A stretch of 64,000 bases of DNA, taken from a virus. The notes below the pieces were generated by a model that had not been told where the DNA came from, did not search any database, and saw only the letters and a program-made list of their open reading frames with translations. This document shows, piece after piece, positions 181 to 60,898 of this stretch. The DNA lies in IMG/VR virus record IMGVR_UViG_3300035181_001974, one strand, 5' to 3'. Position 1 is the stretch's first letter. The number at the start of each line of letters is the position of its first letter. The position numbers were made by a program, and so were the translations under genes.

Positions 181-266
181 TGCGTCGTAGCACAACCGTA
201 AAGCCGGAGAGGCAGTGCACTCGACTGTTAATCGAGGGGATGAGGGTTCGACTCCTTCCGACGCAG
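181..266 (+). tRNA. tRNA with canonical Asn loop CTGTTAA (GTT) and a 21-nt D-loop insertion (86 nt)
   Basis: perfect acceptor TGCGTCG/CGACGCA, D-stem GCAC/GTGC enclosing hairpin GCCGGAGAGGC, anticodon stem CTCGA/TCGAG, T-arm GAGGGTTCGACTCCTTC. Confidence 0.4.
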
Positions 267-288
267 CCAGATCCTTTGGGATCATCAT

Positions 289-372
289 TCACAGGTAGCC
301 TAGTGGCCAGGCAGCGGGCTGTTAACCCGTAACGGTGAAAGCCTAACGCGGGTTCGAATCCTGCCCTGTGAG
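289..372 (+). tRNA. tRNA, GTT-type anticodon loop CTGTTAA, 19-nt variable region (atypical)
   Basis: acceptor TCACAGG/CCTGTGA, anticodon stem GCGGG/CCCGT, T-arm GCGGGTTCGAATCCTGC, CCA encoded. Confidence 0.35.
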
Positions 373-493
373 CCAGCCGTCAGCAAGACAAACCGCAGAC
401 TCCGTAATCGTGGGAGCGGTAGCCTTGCGATGGCGCAGACATGAGAGCCCACGGAGCGACGGCCAAACTCTCAGCAGAACTTCCGTCGCAACC

Positions 494-753: not shown

Positions 754-825
754 GGGGAGGTAGCTCAGTGAAAGAGCGCCGGCAGAATAAGCCGGGGGTC
801 GTAGGTTCAAGTCCTGCCCTCCCCA
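754..825 (+). tRNA. tRNA, non-canonical anticodon loop AGAATAA (AAT; Ile-like?)
   Basis: perfect acceptor GGGGAGG/CCTCCCC, D GCTC/GAGC, anticodon stem CCGGC/GCCGG, T-arm GTAGGTTCAAGTCCTGC, CCA encoded. Confidence 0.45.
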
Positions 826-829
826 CCAT

Positions 830-902
830 GTGCGAGTAGCTCAGGCAGAAGAGCACCAAGGATTATCCTTGGGGGTCGGTGGTTCAACTCCACCCTCGCG
901 CA
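830..902 (+). tRNA. tRNA, anticodon loop GATTATC (positions 34-36 = TTA; A at 33); possible UUA-anticodon tRNA
   Basis: acceptor GTGCGAG/CTCGCGC, D GCTC AGGCAGAA GAGC, anticodon stem CCAAG/CTTGG, T-arm GGTGGTTCAACTCCACC, CCA encoded. Confidence 0.4.
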
Positions 903-924
903 CCAGTCACAGCAAGTAACCAAA

Positions 925-992
925 TGCGAGTGTGATGGTAGCACAGCAGGCTTTGAACCTGCAAGACCTCGGTTCGAATCCGGGGGTAGCAG
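925..992 (+). tRNA. tRNA-like, anticodon loop CTTTGAA (TTG, Gln-like), short D region
   Basis: anticodon stem GCAGG/CCTGC perfect; T-arm CTCGGTTCGAATCCGGG; acceptor only 5/7 paired. Confidence 0.3.
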
Positions 993-24061: not shown

Positions 24062-24156
24062 GGACCCGTGGTGTAACGGGCATACACGGTGTTGCTGTTC
24101 CTCCATGTCAGGAGGTTACGGGCACCCGACAGGGCGGTTCGATCCCGCCGGGTCCA
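24062..24156 (+). tRNA. long (about 95 nt) class II-like tRNA, anticodon unresolved
   Basis: perfect acceptor GGACCCG/CGGGTCC, D GTGT/ACAC, variable-arm hairpin CGGGCACCCG, T-arm GGCGGTTCGATCCCGCC; 11 extra nt before a CCTCC/GGAGG stem with 6-nt loop ATGTCA. Confidence 0.35.
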
Positions 24157-24161
24157 CTAAT

Positions 24162-25275: not shown

Positions 25276-25352
25276 CCACCCTTGGCGTAATGGTAGCGCA
25301 CTTGGTTGAAACCCAGGAGGCCTCGATTCAATCCTGAGAGGGAGAGGGTGGA
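25276..25352 (+). tRNA. tRNA-Phe(GAA) (canonical loop TTGAAAC), irregular T region
   Basis: perfect acceptor CCACCCT/AGGGTGG with CCA, D GCGT AATGGTA GCGC, anticodon stem CTTGG/CCAGG; 6 extra nt before the acceptor 3' strand. Confidence 0.4.
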
Positions 25353-26329: not shown

Positions 26330-26400
26330 GCTAACGCGTCTGACTTAGTGTAACGGTAGCACATTTGCCTAAAAAGCGAGTAGAACGGTTCGATTCCGTG
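26330..26400 (+). tRNA. tRNA-like gene, loop CTAAAAA, unresolved
   Basis: D-like TAGTGTAACGGTAGCAC, T-arm ACGGTTCGATTCCGT; acceptor pairing not found by eye. Confidence 0.2.
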
Positions 26401-27363: not shown

Positions 27364-27440
27364 TGAGACGTAGCTCAGTCTGGTAGAGCAGGTGGTGTCC
27401 AACTACTGGGTCGTCGGTTCGAATCCGATCGTGAAGGTGA
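27364..27440 (+). tRNA. tRNA-like gene with canonical D-arm but unpaired acceptor, unresolved
   Basis: TAGCTCAGTCTGGTAGAGCA D-arm, T-arm GTCGGTTCGAATCCGAT; no complementary acceptor strands found. Confidence 0.2.
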
Positions 27441-27548: not shown

Positions 27549-27621
27549 GCGCCCGTAGCCTAGTGGATGAGGCACTTGTCTACGAAACAAGTTTACGTAG
27601 GTTCAAATCCTGCCGGGCGCG
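27549..27621 (+). tRNA. tRNA-Arg(ACG)
   Basis: perfect acceptor GCGCCCG/CGGGCGC, D GCC TAGTGGATGA GGC, anticodon stem CTTGT/ACAAG, loop CTACGAA, T-arm GTAGGTTCAAATCCTGC, CCA encoded. Confidence 0.65.
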
Positions 27622-27739
27622 CCAGCAAGTAACCACTGGCTCGGGTGAAACTCCCAGGATGGCAGCAAGTGCTGTTATCGGCGGTGTCCACCAGCACAGG
27701 TCATGGAGACCTGTGGGTGAACGCTTGGCTGAAGAAAAG

Positions 27740-28246: not shown

Positions 28247-28480
28247 ATGGTCCCGCGGATCTGCAGCGGGCAGCTGGTCACGGTCGCCCCTGTCACGGAC
28301 GAAACGTTGGTCGAGGTTGACGACGTTGTCCTGTGCAAGGTCAACGGCATCCAGATGCTTCACAAGGTGTCAGCTATCGGCAGCGATGGTCGCTACCAGA
28401 TCAGCAACAATCACGGCCACATCAACGGTTGGTGCACGAGGAAGACCGTCTTCGGCATCCTCGTTGCCGTGGAGGACTAA
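28247..28480 (+). CDS. hypothetical small protein upstream of prfB
   Basis: 77-aa ORF. Confidence 0.4.
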   Translation: MVPRICSGQLVTVAPVTDETLVEVDDVVLCKVNGIQMLHKVSAIGSDGRYQISNNHGHINGWCTRKTVFGILVAVED

Positions 28481-28481
28481 C

Positions 28482-29151
28482 ATGGAAACTGTCATCATCG
28501 AGATCAGGGCCGCCGAGGGCGGCGAGGACGCAAGACTTCTCGTTCAGGAGCAGCTCCGGGCATACGCCAACGCGGCGGCCCGGAGGGGTCTTTGAGGCGA
28601 CTGTAATCGATGATCGACCAGGGATGGTGATGCTCTCTGTCTCCGGCCCAGGAACCCTGCAGACCTTTGCAAATGAAGGCGGCGGGCACAGGTGGCAGCG
28701 CGTTCCACCGACAGAAAAGCGTGGTCGTGTGCAAACGTCGACAGTGACGGTCGCGGTCTTAAACCCAGACACCGTCATCGGCCAGGCACTAGACCCCCGT
28801 GATGTGGAAATCACCACTGCCCGAGGCTCGGGTCCGGGCGGCCAAAATCGCAACAAGACAGAGTCGTGCGTCATCGCGGTCCACAAGCCCACCGGCTTTC
28901 AGGTTCGCATTGACAACGAGCGCTCGCAGCACCAGAACCGGGCGATGGCCTTCAAGGTCTTGGCCGCTCGCCTCTACGAGGCTGAGTCTGAACGGCTCTA
29001 CCGCGAGCGCTCCAACGAGCGCAAGCAACAGGTGGGCTCAGGTCAGCGCGGCGACAAGGTACGAACCTACCGGACACAGGACGACCTGGTCACTGACCAT
29101 AGGACAGGTCAGAAGTACAACCTGTCGAAGTGGCTCAAGGGTGACTGGTGA
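28482..29151 (+). CDS. prfB: peptide chain release factor 2 (prfB) with +1 programmed ribosomal frameshift; coding as join(28482..28592,28594..29151)
   Basis: N-terminal METVIIEIRAAEGGEDARL (PCRF) ending at in-frame TGA inside GGAGGGG-T-CTT-TGA-G (SD-like + CUU UGA shift site); +1 frame continues FEATVIDDR..., universal GGQ motif in RGSGPGGQNRNKTESC, RSQHQNR. Confidence 0.85.
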
Positions 29152-29192: not shown

Positions 29193-29654
29193 GTGTCAGC
29201 AAAGATCGACAGGTTCATCAATGAGTTCGCGTTCTTGTCGAACTTTCATCCATCCACCATCATCGTCGACGGCCGGCATTATGCCACGGTTGAGCATGCC
29301 TATCAGGCTGCCAAGACCCTAGACGAGACGCAACGTGAGATGGTGCGCAAGTCGAAGACGGCGGCCGAGGCCAAGAAGCTCGGCCGCTCTGTCACCCTCC
29401 GCGAGGATTGGGACCAGGTCAAGGTCGACTTGATGCGAAAGTTCGTCAAGGCCAAGTTCGAGAACCCGCTGCTCCGCGAGATGTTGCTGGCGACTGAGGA
29501 TGCTGAGCTCATCGAGGGCAACCACTGGAACGATAAGTTTTGGGGCGTTTGTCGCGGGCAGGGACAGAATTGGTTGGGTCGTATCTTGCAGGAGGTTCGT
29601 GATGAAATCAGGGCCGAAGTTGATGCAGAGTCAGCCCTCGATGACATTCCCTGA
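29193..29654 (+). CDS. NADAR (YbiA/DUF1768) family protein
   Basis: GTG start with GGAGG RBS; FLSNFHPS..HYATVEHAYQAAK..NHWNDKFWGV, a strong YbiA/NADAR signature. Confidence 0.75.
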   Translation: MSAKIDRFINEFAFLSNFHPSTIIVDGRHYATVEHAYQAAKTLDETQREMVRKSKTAAEAKKLGRSVTLREDWDQVKVDLMRKFVKAKFENPLLREMLLATEDAELIEGNHWNDKFWGVCRGQGQNWLGRILQEVRDEIRAEVDAESALDDIP

Positions 29655-30429: not shown

Positions 30430-30505
30430 TAGTAACCATCGATGGTGTATGGGTTAACACACCGGGCTCGTGATCCGGGGCAGCAGGTTCGAATCCTGCA
30501 TCAGG
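30430..30505 (+). tRNA. tRNA-like, anticodon loop CTCGTGA (CGT), acceptor unpaired
   Basis: D GTGT ATGGGTTA ACAC, anticodon stem CCGGG/TCCGG, T-arm GCAGGTTCGAATCCTGC. Confidence 0.25.
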
Positions 30506-30574: not shown

Positions 30575-30648
30575 TCTCCCCGTAGCTCAGCGGATCAGAG
30601 CGCGTGTCTCCGAAGCACGAGGTCGTGGGTTCAAATCCCACCGGGGAG
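30575..30648 (+). tRNA. tRNA-Arg(CCG)
   Basis: perfect acceptor CTCCCCG/CGGGGAG, D GCTC AGCGGATCA GAGC, anticodon stem CGTGT/GCACG, loop CTCCGAA, T-arm GTGGGTTCAAATCCCAC, CCA encoded. Confidence 0.6.
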
Positions 30649-30656
30649 GCCAACTA

Positions 30657-30733
30657 TGCCGCTGTATCCCCTCGGTTTCCTAAACCGTTGAAAGGGTAGC
30701 TGGATGCACGTGGGTTCGAATCCCTCCAGCGGT
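30657..30733 (+). tRNA. atypical tRNA-Arg(CCT)-like: no D-arm at normal position, 22-nt region after anticodon arm
   Basis: acceptor GCCGCTG/CAGCGGT + GCCA, anticodon hairpin CGGT TTCCTAA ACCG, segment TTGAAAGGGTAGCTGGATGCAC, T-arm GTGGGTTCGAATCCCTC. Confidence 0.35.
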
Positions 30734-30743
30734 GCCACCATCA

Positions 30744-30818
30744 CGCCCCCGTATGCCGCGTGCCTTCGAAGCACGAGAAAGCTAACGGACACATGCAGGT
30801 TCGAATCCTGTCGGGGGT
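30744..30818 (+). tRNA. atypical tRNA-Arg(TCG)-like: 5 nt between position 9 and anticodon stem, 18-nt post-anticodon region
   Basis: acceptor GCCCCCG/CGGGGGT + GCCA, anticodon arm CGTGC CTTCGAA GCACG (near-identical to Arg(CCG) at 30575), segment AGAAAGCTAACGGACAC, T-arm GCAGGTTCGAATCCTGT. Confidence 0.35.
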
Positions 30819-30825
30819 GCCATCA

Positions 30826-30902
30826 TGCCCCTGTATCGACTCTGCCTTCTAAGCAGGTGAAATCGTAATTGGACACATGCGAGTTCGACTCTCGCCAGGG
30901 GT
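30826..30902 (+). tRNA. atypical tRNA-Arg(TCT)-like, same architecture
   Basis: acceptor GCCCCTG/CAGGGGT + GCCA, anticodon arm TCTGC CTTCTAA GCAGG, segment TGAAATCGTAATTGGACAC, T-arm GCGAGTTCGACTCTCGC. Confidence 0.35.
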
Positions 30903-31065
30903 GCCAGTGTAACTCGAGCGGTCGGTATGGTATCTTGAATCAAGAGGCCACGCATGGCGAAGGCAAAAGCGATTTCCGGTCGTCTCCTAAGAATGGAACG
31001 AGTTTGAACGAGGTTGGAGCTGTCGCCCTGACGGGGCCACGCTTCACCTGACCGAGGCAGACCAC

Positions 31066-31790: not shown

Positions 31791-31948
31791 ACTGAACCTC
31801 GAACTTCCGATACTTATCAAGGCCGGTTATGCGCCCGCAAGACCTATCAACTCCCAAGACGCGCAAGCGTCCGAGATTCGGCGAAGAGCCGAGGGGGAAG
31901 CCCGTGCCGAAAGGCACGAGACCGATCCTTGACAAGCCGGAGGACACC

Positions 31949-32335
31949 ATGAGTGACGTGAAGCAGGTCATCGTCGTACGAAAGGACCTGAACATGAAAA
32001 AGGGCAAATTGGCCGCCCAGGTCGCCCATGCTTCGATGAAGTTTCTCGTTGACAACAACGAAGCGCAACGTGGAGACGAGGTCGTCATCAAGCTGACACC
32101 CGCAGAGGCCACATGGTTGTCGGGTTCCTTCACCAAGATCGTGGTGGGTGTGGATTCGGAAGATGCCTTGAAGGACCTCATCTTCAAGGCAGAAATTGAG
32201 GACGTCGAGGTGCATCCCATCATCGACGCCGGAAGGACAGAGTTCAATGGAGTTCCGACATTGACTTGTGCAGCCTTCGGACCATGCGAGGGTGCGCTGC
32301 TCGACAGGATCACAGGTAACCTGAAGTTGATTTGA
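31949..32335 (+). CDS. peptidyl-tRNA hydrolase, PTH2 family
   Basis: KQVIVVRKDLNMKKGKLAAQVAHASMKF and IDAGRTEFNGVPTLTCAAFGP match the PTH2 signature; RBS GGAGG. Confidence 0.7.
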   Translation: MSDVKQVIVVRKDLNMKKGKLAAQVAHASMKFLVDNNEAQRGDEVVIKLTPAEATWLSGSFTKIVVGVDSEDALKDLIFKAEIEDVEVHPIIDAGRTEFNGVPTLTCAAFGPCEGALLDRITGNLKLI

Positions 32336-34224: not shown

Positions 34225-34368
34225 CCAGCAAGTAATCACCACCAAGGCCGTCCCCAATGGCCTACATGTGAAAGCTTTTGTGATCGTGGCGTAGTGGTAT
34301 CGTACCACCGACGATCTAGGGCTATCGATGACATCGATGGCGACGAATGTTTTTCTGTGAAGAAAGTC

Positions 34369-34986
34369 ATGAAATCATATCCCTCAATCCCCTACGCCAC
34401 CGAGTGCCGAGTCCCAATCGTCGCCTTCGACAAGCTCGACGGGTCCAACGTCCGCGCCGAGTGGTCGCGCAAAAAAGGCTTCTACAAGTTCGGCACCCGC
34501 ACGCGGCTAGTGGACGCATCCGATCCTGTCTTCGGTAAGGTGCCCGGACTGATCAACGACAAGTACGGCAAGGGCATCGACGAGGTGCTCAAGGAATCGA
34601 AGTGGGTCTCGGCCTGCTGCTTCTTCGAATTTTGGGGGCCCAATAGTGCCTTCGGCATGCACGACCTCAAGGAAGACCAGACGGTAACCCTGATCGACGT
34701 GGCGCCCTTCGGCGCCGGCATTCTGGAGCCTGAGCTCTACCTGAAGTTGTTTGGTCACCTCGACCACGCCAAGGTCTTGTACGAAGGCGAAGTGACGGAA
34801 GCCTTCATAGAGAGCGTTCGGGACGGTTCGCTGCCCGGCATGACCTTTGAAGGCGTCGTCTGCAAAGGCAAGAACGACAAGAAAACCAAGGCACCCGTGA
34901 TGTTCAAGCAGAAGTCGCGGGCCTGGTTCGACAAGCTGAAGGCTTACTGCGGCGACAATAACGAGTTGTTCCGGACTCTACGGTAA
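34369..34986 (+). CDS. small nucleotidyltransferase-superfamily RNA ligase-like protein (KxDG)
   Basis: motif I FDKLDGSNVRAEW, downstream EFWGPNS and EGVVCKGKNDKK (motif IV/V-like); true start likely ATG 34369 (MKSYPSIPY). Confidence 0.55.
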   Translation: MKSYPSIPYATECRVPIVAFDKLDGSNVRAEWSRKKGFYKFGTRTRLVDASDPVFGKVPGLINDKYGKGIDEVLKESKWVSACCFFEFWGPNSAFGMHDLKEDQTVTLIDVAPFGAGILEPELYLKLFGHLDHAKVLYEGEVTEAFIESVRDGSLPGMTFEGVVCKGKNDKKTKAPVMFKQKSRAWFDKLKAYCGDNNELFRTLR

Positions 34987-36937: not shown

Positions 36938-38209
36938 ATGAAGCCGTTGGTGTTGGAGTACCTGCGTTCCCATACGTTCCGTGAGCTCGAGGACGAGCAC
37001 GGTGTCTGTGCGCGGCCCAACTCGCGCTTCGATAAGTTCTCACTCAACTATGATCAGATCTTGGCGAAGTCGGGCAATGCCTTGATGGAACAGTGCCGCG
37101 GCATGGTGATTCGTCCATCTCGCGAGCAGACGGAGCAGTTCCTCCACGATGAGGCCCGGCGTGGTGGCGCGCCTCTGTCGACAGCAAAGTGGCGCGACCG
37201 CGTCGTAGGCGACTGCGAGCTGTTGGCCTGGCCCATGAATCGCTTCTACAACCACGGCGATGTCGCGGCCGCGGGGGTCGACTGGTCGGATCCCGAGCTC
37301 CGCGTCTACGAGAAGCTCGATGGCACGTGTTGCATCGTCTACTGGGACGAACTTCATGGTCAGTGGCACGTCGGTACGCGGTCGGTTCCCGAGGCTGACC
37401 TGCCGATCCGCAAGGATGACATGTCGATCGGCAACATGACGTTCCGCGACCTGTTCTTCAAGGCCCTGATCGAGACCCGTGAGGCGAACTCGGGCCAAAA
37501 GCTAGACTGGGTTCCGAGCGACTTCGATCAGGTCGTTCATCTCAACAAGGAACTGACGTACGTCTTCGAGCTAACGAGCCCGCACAACCGCATCGTGGTT
37601 CGCTATGACGAGCCTCGTGTGACGCTGTTGGCGATTCGTCACACGGCATCGGGCAATGAATCGGTCATCGAGGAGCTGCAACTGCAGCACGTCAACCGGC
37701 CGCAGCGTTGGAAGTTGTCGGAACCGAAGGCGCTGGCAGCGTTTGTTGAGGCGGCGGACCCATCAAAGTTGGAAGGCGCGGTCGTCGTTGACTCGAATTT
37801 CAACCGTCAGAAGGTCAAGTCTCGGGCCTGGGTCCTGTCTTCCAAAGCGAAGGACCTAGTGACTGTCTCGAAGCGATCCGCAGTCGAGGCCATCATCCGC
37901 GGCACGATTGATGACGTCATCCCGTTGGTCGAGGCCGACGTGGCTGGGGAGCTGCGTTCGATGCAGGCTGCGGTGCGCGAGTATCTCATCTCTGTCGATC
38001 GCAACTTCGAGGCCTGGCGTGATTACGCAGCGGGTTCGCGGAAGCTCTTCGCTGAGAAGGTGATGCAGTCCAACGATTGGGCGGCGCCCTACTTCAACTT
38101 GTGGGAAAGCCGTGCGGCCAATGCCCGCGAGTGGTGTGAGTTGATGGCGTCCAAGGAAAAGCTCAACGCCTCGTCCTACGACACCATCCTGAATAAGATC
38201 GGCCGCTGA
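36938..38209 (+). CDS. ATP-dependent RNA ligase (Rnl-type)
   Basis: motif I YEKLDGTCCIVYWD, 423 aa, further nucleotidyltransferase motifs (FELTSPHNRIV, EGAVVVD); RBS TAGGAGG. Confidence 0.7.
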   Translation: MKPLVLEYLRSHTFRELEDEHGVCARPNSRFDKFSLNYDQILAKSGNALMEQCRGMVIRPSREQTEQFLHDEARRGGAPLSTAKWRDRVVGDCELLAWPMNRFYNHGDVAAAGVDWSDPELRVYEKLDGTCCIVYWDELHGQWHVGTRSVPEADLPIRKDDMSIGNMTFRDLFFKALIETREANSGQKLDWVPSDFDQVVHLNKELTYVFELTSPHNRIVVRYDEPRVTLLAIRHTASGNESVIEELQLQHVNRPQRWKLSEPKALAAFVEAADPSKLEGAVVVDSNFNRQKVKSRAWVLSSKAKDLVTVSKRSAVEAIIRGTIDDVIPLVEADVAGELRSMQAAVREYLISVDRNFEAWRDYAAGSRKLFAEKVMQSNDWAAPYFNLWESRAANAREWCELMASKEKLNASSYDTILNKIGR

Positions 38210-60417: not shown

Positions 60418-60898
60418 TCCAACAATGTATCAACGTTTCTGCGCGAAGTTCATCGAGCCACCAACCCAGTGAATGAAGTACTCCTGCTCTGTCTCGTGAT
60501 ACATCGGTCCACAGGGCACCATGCGCCATGTACCGCCATAGCGATGATACTCATGACACAGATGATAACGTTGAAGCGGTTCTTCTGGCTCATCGCGCCG
60601 GAGTCGAAACTATTCAGCGAGCCTCTCTAGACCAGAGTTGTTGTAGAAGGCTGGATCACTCACGGAGCTCAAGCATTTGCTCGAGGCTACAACGCTTGCC
60701 GCAGTGATCACAGATAAAGGCAGTTTCCATGACGCTCCCGAAGGGACTTGAACCCTCAACGCATGGTGTTAGAATCCGTCACTCTGCCATTGAGTTACAG
60801 GAGCAGTGCCCCGAGTGGGAGTCGAACCCACGATCGCGGTTTTAGAGACCGCAGCTTTAGCCCGCTAAGCTACCGAGGCAAACCTCAAAATTGTACGG

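Follow-up and report, generated by a model that had tools for sequence, protein, structure and literature searches.

A stretch of viral DNA of 64,000 nucleotides (IMG/VR record IMGVR_UViG_3300035181_001974; the whole of it is called the window in the following) carries three consecutive genes for tRNA-Arg, with the anticodons CCU, UCG and UCU (genes 1, 2 and 3; table 1), which most likely specify working, chargeable arginine tRNAs with a rewired core topology. A reading of the letters alone (the sequence-only reading) had noticed these genes and described them as lacking the D-arm in its normal place, with a GG-containing segment moved behind the anticodon arm. Both their position and their anatomy are as claimed, as judged from the sequence and from the alignment to the Rfam tRNA model, and comparison with a large set of relatives bears out the relocation while sharpening it: the relocated part comprises only the D-loop and the 5′ strand of the D-stem, whose 3′ strand is still found 5′ of the anticodon arm and pairs with the moved strand across it. 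The canonical chain runs through positions 8–9, the D-stem 5′ strand (10–13), the D-loop (14–21), the D-stem 3′ strand (22–25), 26, the anticodon arm (27–43), the variable loop (44–48) and the T-arm; that of the family runs through 8–9, the equivalents of 22–25, 26, the anticodon arm, a linker (usually N-GAAA), the equivalents of 10–13, the D-loop (A14, R15, Y, U, G18, G19, N20, N, A), C-A-Y48 and the T-arm.

In each of the three genes the acceptor stem is paired in 7/7 positions (with one G-U pair each) and leads into U8-A9, the discriminator being G. Only 5–6 nt separate U8-A9 from the anticodon stem, and the D hairpin is absent. The anticodon stem, of 4–5 bp, carries a loop of 7 nt (UUCCUAA, CUUCGAA and CUUCUAA, respectively) in which U33 and a purine at position 37 are present. 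The 18–22 nt that follow on the 3′ side of the anticodon arm consist of GAAA, 2–3 variable nucleotides and the motif UAR..GGA..CAY, after which come a normal T-arm (GUUCGAnUC, with a 5-bp stem) and the 3′ acceptor strand.

Relatives of these genes are numerous in viral DNA. Pattern scans of IMG/VR yielded at least 215 distinct ones, 119 with Arg anticodons and 96 with Ile or CAU anticodons, and the size of this set, together with the covariation found in it, supports the earlier suggestion of a dedicated family of rearranged Arg tRNAs as opposed to random decay, with the addition that the family also has an Ile clade. In the first scan, for which the pattern was written from genes 1–3 and the anticodon was left free, at least 120 loci were found, with at least 129 occurrences and 111 distinct sequences, 102 of which have a perfect 7-bp acceptor stem; the anticodons among the 129 listed occurrences are UCU (52), ACG (42), UCG (23), CCU (10), CCG (1) and GAU (1), i.e. 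they belong to Arg in 128/129 cases. A scan limited to CCU gave 19 loci in all and, because nine of them were already among the loci of the first scan, the number of viral loci that match the strict Arg pattern is probably about 250. When, in a second scan, a base other than C was imposed at position 35 and only GG was required in the loop, a sister clade emerged, with the anticodons UAU (100), GAU (18) and CAU (6) among the matches listed. Variants with other linkers are also found (L049:14212, L076:785, L031:10111 and L021:89, scoring 46–59 bits).

The split D-stem is most directly seen in the pairing statistics of two alignments, namely A2 (MAFFT; 111 Arg-clade sequences, 77 columns) and A3 (97 Ile-clade sequences). 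By pair counting in A2, columns 11–13 are 100% paired with columns 37–39 in the 111 sequences, although the bases change freely: pair 11-39 is CG in 40, GC in 39, AU in 28 and UA in 4 sequences; pair 12-38 is CG in 60, UA in 8, GC in 6 and AU in 1; and pair 13-37, the equivalent of G10-C25, is CG in 105, GC in 4 and AU in 2. None of these columns had been fixed by the search pattern. The Ile clade provides an independent replicate, in which the cross-helix is 99.7% paired in 97 sequences and pair 12-38 is CG in 40, UA in 33 and GC in 20. Over both clades 94–96% of the structural cells are paired, with hundreds of compensatory changes, and when the 3′ partners are slid by one column the pairing of the whole structure falls from 96% to 45% in the Arg clade (45–49% across clades). 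The anticodon-stem pairs 16-30 to 19-27 covary as well, and pairing in the T-stem amounts to 98%. That the GAAA belongs to a local GNRA hairpin was considered and rejected, as column 32 varies freely with respect to G37, with no covariation.

On the 3′ side of the cross-helix the alignment reads U40, A41, R42, Y, U, G45-G46, N47, N, A49, C50, A51 and Y52. U40, A41, C50 and A51, none of them fixed by the pattern, are invariant in 208 sequences, and R42 covaries with Y52 (AU 106 and GC 3 in the Arg clade, AU 66 and GC 25 in the Ile clade; G-C in gene 1). Each of these columns has a counterpart in canonical tRNA: columns 10–13 are equivalent to positions 22–25 and columns 37–40 to positions 10–13, G37-C13 being the conserved G10-C25; A41 is equivalent to A14, the partner of U8; R42-Y52 to the R15-Y48 Levitt pair; G45-G46 to G18-G19, which dock on the T-loop; and N47 to position 20. 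By these column-by-column correspondences, the family is in effect a cloverleaf whose block 10–21 stands 3′ of block 22–43 instead of 5′ of it.

In gene 1, the cross-helix joins C30668-C30670 to G30696-G30694, and its relocated segment comprises the GAAA linker (30690–30693), GGG-U as the equivalent of positions 10–13 (30694–30697) and, at 30698–30709, the D-loop-like stretch A14 G15 C U G18 G19 A20 U G followed by C-A and C48. In gene 3, C-G-A (30837–30839) pairs with U-C-G (30863–30865), a rare variant of the helix that is also found in locus L117. In gene 2, G30755-C30782 and C30756-G30781 would form, with C30757-G30777 as a probable third pair, according to the pairing pattern of its subclass, and the relocated segment runs through the linker, the strand 10′–13′, A14 A15, G18 G19, A20 and C-A-U48. 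The two subclasses differ in column 38. Where it is present (genes 1 and 3), the stack consists of four anticodon-stem pairs, U15-U31, C14-G33, an AAA bulge, three Watson-Crick pairs and U10-U40; where it is deleted (gene 2), 15-31 is C-G in 33/36 sequences, 14-32 is G-A in 27/36 (like G26-A44) and a C13-G33 pair becomes possible. Both subclasses keep about 10 stack layers, equal to the 5 + 1 + 4 of normal tRNA, in support of a length constraint.

Gene finders and general tRNA models see little of this. ARAGORN reports 46 tRNAs in the window, none of which is any of genes 1–3, and it detects 6/260 family members. With the Rfam tRNA model genes 1, 2 and 3 score 27.8, 36.5 and 33.8 bits, compared with a gathering score of 29 and with 42–72 bits for the canonical tRNAs of the window, and fourteen further family members score 29–41 bits (eight of them) or below 29 (six). 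The covariance-model search that the sequence-only reading had proposed recovers no conventional D-arm in the three genes, which Infernal aligns through a local end that skips the D-arm (15 model nucleotides versus 0–4 nt) and a 16–18 nt insert in the variable region. A cloverleaf in another register was given neither by ARAGORN nor by Infernal with the Rfam tRNA model, and reading the anticodon hairpin as the D-arm leaves no anticodon arm. A covariance model of the family that encodes the cross-helix (R1) gives 86.0, 81.3 and 90.2 bits to genes 1–3, which were within its training alignment, at least 76 bits to full-length family members and at most 34 bits to canonical tRNAs. In the window the architecture pattern has exactly three matches, which are genes 1–3, with 0.00 expected from 100 shuffles. 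The Arg(CCG) gene that adjoins them upstream had been taken as perfectly canonical, with an anticodon arm nearly identical to that of the UCG gene; it does form a full cloverleaf and scores only 25.1 bits with R1, and the two anticodon arms differ at two positions.

The nucleotides by which a synthetase would recognize these RNAs can be compared with the known identity sets. That of Arg consists of A20, C35, position 36 and A/G73, A20 being the main determinant for the Escherichia coli arginyl-tRNA synthetase (ArgRS), and A73 and A35 are common to the identity of Ile, Val and Met (PMC9976931). Genes 1–3 carry C35, U/G36 and A/G73, with the anticodons CCU, UCG and UCU and G as discriminator. 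The base after G18G19, which presumably corresponds to A20, is A in genes 1–3, where it is A30704, A30789 and A30873, respectively, and in 119/119 Arg members, and an IMG/VR scan for C35 combined with a base other than A at this site returned one unrelated sequence and no real member. Of the Ile-clade members, 93/96 have U at this site and 96/96 have A as discriminator, the discriminators of the 119 Arg members being G (67), A (37) and U (15). As read from the genes, the identity nucleotides track the anticodon class.

Furthermore, the permuted genes complement the canonical ones. For the 59 permuted Arg genes that lie beside a canonical tRNA-Arg in their locus, the anticodon overlap is 4, compared with 16.4 ± 3.2 after shuffling, a four-fold depletion that was reached in 1/5000 shuffles; for permuted Ile genes the overlap is 0/10 versus 4.4 expected. 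In the window itself the only canonical Arg tRNAs are those with ACG and CCG (table 1), the permuted genes adding CCU, UCG and UCU, and the codons CGA, CGG, AGA and AGG make up 234/538 of the Arg codons in 19 long open reading frames (ORFs). A syntenic phage contig (L046), whose shared protein genes are 71–79% identical to those of the window at the nucleotide level, has a different partition, with canonical UCU, UCG, ACG, CCG and GCG and only CCU permuted. Its permuted gene (L046:5561-5641) is 89% identical to gene 1 and stands in the same place, and a canonical Arg(UCU) gene (L046:5722-5799) occupies the place of the permuted Arg(UCG) gene 2 of the window. The latter two are identical in 8/8 nt at the 5′ end and in 33/36 nt at the 3′ end, including GGACACAUGCAGGUUCGA, which suggests that canonical and permuted lower halves are interchangeable and that the lower half of a tRNA gene can be replaced as a module.

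The family is essentially a feature of phages or mobile elements, because real members are few in 596 Gb of prokaryotic DNA and lie mostly on tRNA-rich metagenome contigs. This pattern scan, with one genome for each of 185,579 species, gave 34 stretches, comprising 20 unstructured chance matches and 15 real members on 14 contigs; 13 of these contigs are metagenome-assembled, most of them rich in tRNA genes, and the remaining one holds a tRNA array of Achromobacter anxifer LMG 26857 (NZ_CAHLAR010000005.1), the sole isolate genome with a real member among the species representatives. Its member is a permuted Arg(CCG) gene in an array of at least 14 tRNA genes, which includes a canonical Arg(CCG) gene and is probably a prophage or island. 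Cultured phages also carry copies, unannotated in Streptomyces phage TunaTartare (UCG; NC_070784, 79716–79791) and in the Microbacterium phages A3Wally (ACG; MZ150783, 93609–93685) and Zooman, and a further 77 Streptomyces phage records contain one, those listed being of about 130–136 kb, e.g. Jay2Jay (GAU; NC_029098, at about 75237–75313). In total, the GenBank phage records with a copy that is unannotated or mislabelled number at least 78 for Streptomyces and at least 3 for Microbacterium. In EGole (NC_055791, 75265–75341) the permuted Ile(GAU) gene bears the label tRNA-Leu, and the other Streptomyces phage records listed leave it unannotated; in these phages it directly follows a nucleotidyltransferase gene and has no encoded CCA.

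The gene most commonly found within 2.5 kb of family members encodes an HNH endonuclease (67/259 loci; phrog_2255, E 6e-33), and GIY-YIG endonucleases occur at 16 loci. Such neighbours, counted at the loci of members only, fit carriage on mobile tRNA cassettes. No dedicated synthetase or modification enzyme was found beside members among 2,969 clustered neighbouring ORFs, which correspond to homing endonucleases and ordinary phage genes. On one IMG/VR contig a GOLLD RNA (Rfam RF02032, 159.5 bits; L016:6036-6505, minus strand), with a tRNA match inside it, is located about 1 kb from two permuted Arg genes.

How, then, would such a molecule work? The two strands of the D-stem would pair across the anticodon arm and lengthen it into a single stack of about 10 layers, made of the anticodon stem, 26:44 and the D-stem, while the relocated loop would be able to form the U8-A14, R15-Y48 and G18G19–T-loop contacts that build the elbow. 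Because the whole of the acceptor/T-arm half is canonical, RNase P, EF-Tu and the ribosome are expected to handle the molecule normally and, like the CCA enzyme, should see a normal L shape; the host ArgRS, in turn, should find A20, C35, U/G36 and A/G73. Genes 1–3 would decode AGG, CGA/CGG and AGA/AGG, respectively, i.e. codons beyond those served by the two canonical Arg tRNAs of the window. Their expression, processing, aminoacylation and use on the ribosome are presumed from sequence features.

Several observations weigh against this picture or temper it. The family was gathered with a fixed pattern (GUAU, GAAA, GG(A), GUUCRA), so that conservation at these sites is there by construction and divergent members are under-sampled. 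The cross-helix has only 2–3 Watson-Crick pairs, flanked by a U-U and a bulge of 3–4 nt, and the top pair of the anticodon stem (27:43, columns 15-31) is U-U in most members. RNAalifold, applied to 111 sequences, recovers the acceptor, anticodon and T stems and not the 3-bp cross-helix, which emerges only through explicit pair counting. Single-sequence folds are no more stable than those of shuffled sequences (z from –0.6 to –1.1, the canonical neighbour itself reaching only –1.5), and the minimum free energy structures differ among genes 1–3. The equivalence to the L-shaped tRNA in three dimensions is presumed from the nucleotide correspondences. U73, in 15/119 Arg members, lies outside the textbook A/G73. 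Finally, the restriction to certain anticodons speaks for the family, but one test of it is the weaker for its choice of loci: a looser architecture scanner, with no requirement for GAAA or GUAU, gave 170 distinct hits with only Arg or Ile/CAU anticodons in the fetched loci, where canonical tRNAs of every kind number about 1,700, and these loci had been chosen for holding members.

The reading that best survives beside that of functional tRNAs, although it is improbable and we disfavour it, is one that the sequence-only reading had named as its alternative, namely that the RNAs are tRNA-like decoys or anti-defence RNAs, which mimic Arg and Ile tRNAs in order to occupy or mislead tRNA-cleaving or tRNA-sensing immune proteins, or a synthetase, and have no role in translation. 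Phages are known to counter tRNA-directed immunity with tRNAs of their own (PMC10264068, PMC11464382, PMC11555353, PMC12445682), genes of the tRNA-repair type are present in the window (the Rnl1-like ligase, the weak ligase match and PTH2 of table 1), and an odd core might be easier to tolerate in an RNA that never enters the ribosome. However, a decoy has no need to avoid the canonical anticodons of the same phage, as the depleted overlap indicates that these genes do. All the features for charging and elongation are kept (the 7-bp acceptor stem, the discriminator, an often encoded CCA, U33, purine 37, the T-loop and identity nucleotides for the synthetase, which change along with the anticodon class), and the protective phage tRNAs of the published cases are functional tRNAs themselves.

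It is very unlikely that the odd order exists in the DNA only and that, as with intron-containing or circularly permuted tRNA genes, rearrangement or splicing of the primary transcript yields an ordinary cloverleaf. The genes already have canonical termini, and their acceptor strands pair in the order in which they are encoded. To restore the normal order, two cuts and two ligations within the molecule would be needed, and neither a bulge-helix-bulge nor another splice motif is evident. The red alga Cyanidioschyzon merolae does have tRNAs that are permuted at the gene level (PMC3978253) and RNA ligases are encoded nearby, but many unrelated phages carry members and no conserved ligase is found among the 12 commonest neighbour families, the top one being the HNH endonuclease; moreover, the covarying helix 11-13/37-39 shows selection on the encoded order. 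Scarcely more can be said for structured RNAs that act outside translation and have a tRNA-like top half, such as a primer for replication or reverse transcription, an integration site, or a regulator of the synthetase or T-box type: tRNA-like modules are indeed widely reused in biology, but such a role does not predict a full Arg anticodon set, identity nucleotides that follow the anticodon or complementarity to the canonical tRNAs, and the genes stand in tandem in tRNA arrays, with spacers of 4–7 nt like those of ordinary tRNA genes. Decaying pseudogenes or chance tRNA-like debris in a crowded array, possibly unexpressed, can be dismissed with near certainty, for, although degenerate tRNA-like stretches do occur in the window (26346–26399, 27368–27432 and 30441–30503) and the Rfam scores of genes 1–3 are near the gathering score, they are countered by 215 distinct relatives with 94–96% of structural cells paired and hundreds of compensatory changes, by invariant nucleotides at the tertiary contacts, by a chance expectation of 0.00 in the window, and by the clear distinction between the 20 unstructured matches in 596 Gb and the 15 real members.

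With regard to the origin of these presumably functional tRNAs, the anticodons of the family are linked by single-base steps (UCU-CCU; UCU-UCG-ACG/CCG; UCU-UAU-GAU/CAU), and the Arg and Ile clades have the same linker and junction motifs. For these two reasons we favour a single ancestral rearrangement in a phage tRNA-Arg, which would have been followed by anticodon drift and by a change of identity to Ile, in which U replaced A20 and the discriminator became A. A workable rearranged tRNA-Arg may thus have spread with mobile tRNA cassettes, Ile being reached by the one-base step from UCU to UAU. A hypothetical route to this block transposition is partial duplication followed by loss of the outer copies, which would give exactly the observed order.

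As to purpose, phage tRNAs neutralize tRNA-cleaving defences, in some cases by a shortened anticodon stem (PMC10264068, PMC11464382, PMC11555353, PMC12445682), and, because the window also encodes RNA ligases and PTH2, a counter-defence role is attractive. The transposed core might, as a tentative suggestion, be an adaptation to conflicts between phage and host over tRNA, in which the features used by ArgRS or the isoleucyl-tRNA synthetase (IleRS), EF-Tu and the ribosome are kept, and the D-arm/anticodon-stem geometry read by tRNA-cleaving immune nucleases, whether of the host or of rival phages, is removed or reshaped. The simple descent of a workable accident accounts for the data equally well.

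The window, which looks like part of a large uncultured phage genome, contains about 50 tRNA genes grouped in arrays, and the four Arg genes at 30576–30906 form a tandem with spacers of 4–7 nt, each of them ending in an encoded CCA; the window has no permuted Ile gene. Other genes encode a baseplate protein, a DNA ligase, a sigma factor, an RF-1-domain protein, PTH2 and RNA ligases. No close relative of the window was found among 50,697 deposited phage records (INPHARED), with the window region and a structural protein as queries, so that this collection does not contain the phage, and the large ORFs of the window are mostly unmatched in PHROG and Pfam. The NADAR, PTH2 and two RNA-ligase matches look like a module for tRNA repair and turnover.

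Table 1. Coordinates of the permuted tRNA-Arg genes, their parts and other features of the window.
Feature	Position	Strand	Remarks
Permuted-core tRNA-Arg(CCU), gene 1	30658..30737	+	anticodon 30679-30681; CCA encoded; subclass with 3-bp cross-helix
Gene 1, pre-anticodon strand U-C-C-C	30667..30670	+	equivalent to canonical 22-25; A2 columns 10-13
Gene 1, relocated segment	30690..30709	+	A2 columns 33-52
Permuted-core tRNA-Arg(UCG), gene 2	30745..30822	+	anticodon 30766-30768; CCA encoded; subclass without column 38
Gene 2, relocated segment GAAA-GC-U-AACGGACACAU	30777..30794	+	alignments A1, A2; column statistics
Permuted-core tRNA-Arg(UCU), gene 3	30827..30906	+	anticodon 30848-30850; CCA encoded
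Gene 3, relocated segment GAAA-UCG-U-AAUUGGACACAU	30859..30878	+	A2 columns 33-52
Canonical tRNA-Arg(CCG)	30576..30652	+	ARAGORN; Rfam tRNA 66.3 bits, full cloverleaf; adjoins permuted genes upstream; not a family member
Canonical tRNA-Arg(ACG)	27549..27624	+	ARAGORN and Rfam
NADAR domain protein	29193-29654	+	interleaved with tRNA arrays
PTH2 peptidyl-tRNA hydrolase	31829-32335	+	interleaved with tRNA arrays
RNA-ligase match, weak	34294-34986	+	below Pfam cut-off; interleaved with tRNA arrays
RNA ligase, T4 Rnl1 type	36938-38209	+	interleaved with tRNA arrays

Two tRNA genes near the start of the window had been compared with the family in the sequence-only reading, and the likeness did not hold for either. 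The one at 289..372 combines a canonical D-arm with a variable arm that forms a hairpin, and R1 gives it 25.7 bits, versus 81–90 bits for genes 1–3; the one at 181..266 has a D-stem around an enlarged 21-nt D-loop and is absent from the matches of the family model. The former, a tRNA-Asn(GUU) at 289–375 (plus strand), has a 17-nt variable arm in which a hairpin of 3 bp with a GAAA cap can form; the gene contains the string GAAAGCCUAAC, which is similar to the linker of the family (GAAAGCUAAC in gene 2), and its GCCUA repeats the 5′ strand of the gene's own D-stem plus A14. This resemblance could be due to chance, or the gene could be a form with both copies of the 5′ half of the D-arm. The latter (181–269, plus strand) is tRNA-Asn(GUU)-like, with normal acceptor stem, anticodon arm, T-arm and CCA and the 21-nt D-loop GCAC-AACCGUAAAGCCGGAGAGGCA-GUGC; it is reported neither by ARAGORN nor by Rfam at the gathering score and is flanked by two other Asn(GUU) genes.

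Other peculiar tRNA genes are found in the window. A tRNA-Ile at 754–828 (plus strand) has the unusual anticodon AAU (A34). At 24062–24157 (plus strand) lies a tRNA-like gene of 96 nt, for which ARAGORN calls a 4-base anticodon; acceptor stem, D-arm and T-arm are normal, and about 20 surplus nucleotides around the anticodon region suggest an insertion or intron-like element. Low-scoring tRNA-like stretches (29–43 bits) with truncated or mismatched acceptor stems are interspersed between good tRNA genes at 30441–30503, 25276–25346, 26346–26399, 27368–27432 and 925–992 (plus strand); that at 30441–30503 combines a good T-arm and an anticodon loop like that of Thr(CGU) with an acceptor stem of only 3 bp in the Rfam alignment. 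Suppressor-type tRNAs are represented by one with UUA (ochre; 830–905, plus strand) and two in tandem with CUA (amber; 60731–60879, minus strand), and an RF-1/PCRF-domain protein is encoded at 28333–29151 (plus strand). The stop codons of the 19 long ORFs are TAA (6) and TGA (13), with TAG in none. Taken together, the suppressor-type tRNAs, the RF-1/PCRF protein and the absence of TAG may point to stop-codon reassignment or stage-specific recoding in this phage.

If the family works as tRNA, the core of the molecule can be rewired at the level of chain topology with its tertiary contacts kept, and phages have done so repeatedly. Annotation pipelines largely miss genes with the transposed D-arm, and the tRNA complements of phages are under-counted for exactly those Arg and Ile codons, AUA included, that are used in codon-compensation arguments. 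The fold is a natural experiment on which parts of a tRNA are read by synthetases, modification enzymes, nucleases and the ribosome, and the cultured phages that carry it make the tRNA function directly testable. It is also a candidate scaffold for orthogonal tRNAs; should the counter-defence suggestion be true, the phage would have private, cleavage-resistant decoders of Arg and Ile codons, and biology a natural scaffold of this kind.

Full-text literature searches, with most subscription journals outside their reach, found no published description of the transposed-D-arm architecture, and a phage family of Arg and Ile tRNAs with the D-arm split around the anticodon arm apparently has not been described. 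A review of 2020 lists as non-canonical natural tRNAs organellar ones, or Sec/Pyl and allo-tRNA types with altered arm lengths, and mentions neither ‘phage’ nor ‘virus’ (PMC7609411).

With canonical tRNA-Arg (class I, RF00005), the family shares the 7-bp acceptor stem, the A/G discriminator, CCA, the 7-nt anticodon loop with U33 and A37 and the GUUCRA T-arm, besides U8, A14, R15-Y48, G18G19, A20 and C35, and an equal number of layers from the anticodon loop to the elbow. It differs in that the equivalent of 10–21 lies 3′ of the anticodon arm, no D hairpin is formed, the D-stem spans the anticodon arm, a GAAA linker is added and the top pair of the anticodon stem is often U-U, tRNA finders failing or scoring near threshold.

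The D-armless mitochondrial tRNA-Ser(AGY/AGN) of animals also has no hairpin between the acceptor and anticodon stems, few connecting nucleotides and an anticodon helix that is effectively extended. In D-armless mitochondrial tRNAs, however, the D-loop and its G18G19–T-loop contact are lost, the variable region is short and adapted partner proteins are needed, whereas the phage/bacterial family keeps the GG, A14 and R15-Y48 partners in a new chain position, with a canonical T-arm and 18–22 nt after the anticodon arm; the retained elbow nucleotides rule out this type. The class II tRNAs (Leu, Ser and bacterial Tyr) share with the family the long stretch between the anticodon arm and the T-arm, which explains the occasional tRNA-Leu calls by ARAGORN and the tRNA-Leu label in GenBank. 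Their variable arm is, however, a self-contained hairpin beside a normal D-arm, while the stretch of the family pairs with an upstream strand and carries the D-loop; class II is discarded, as columns 32–52 form no conserved hairpin, pairing instead with columns 11–13, and there is no D-arm.

A non-canonical order of gene segments is shared with the circularly permuted tRNA genes of C. merolae, in which the 3′ half precedes the 5′ half and a circular intermediate leads to an ordinary tRNA. The family has normal termini and a transposed internal block that apparently stays in the RNA, and a circular permutation of that type does not apply, the 5′ and 3′ acceptor strands being at the gene ends in normal order. 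The tRNA-like structures of plant RNA viruses are likewise L-shaped mimics, recognized by synthetases, with a non-canonical chain connectivity; they form, however, the 3′ termini of genomic RNAs, their acceptor arm is pseudoknotted and they do not decode, whereas the family consists of free-standing genes in arrays, with real anticodon loops. Finally, an engineered D-arm-less ‘mini HisT’ is accepted by the translation machinery of E. coli, the bacterial synthetase, EF-Tu and the ribosome being able to use it (PMC11551756). This molecule is artificial, lacks the whole D-domain and needs a host mutation for stability, whereas the permuted phage tRNAs are natural and widespread and keep the elements of the D-domain.

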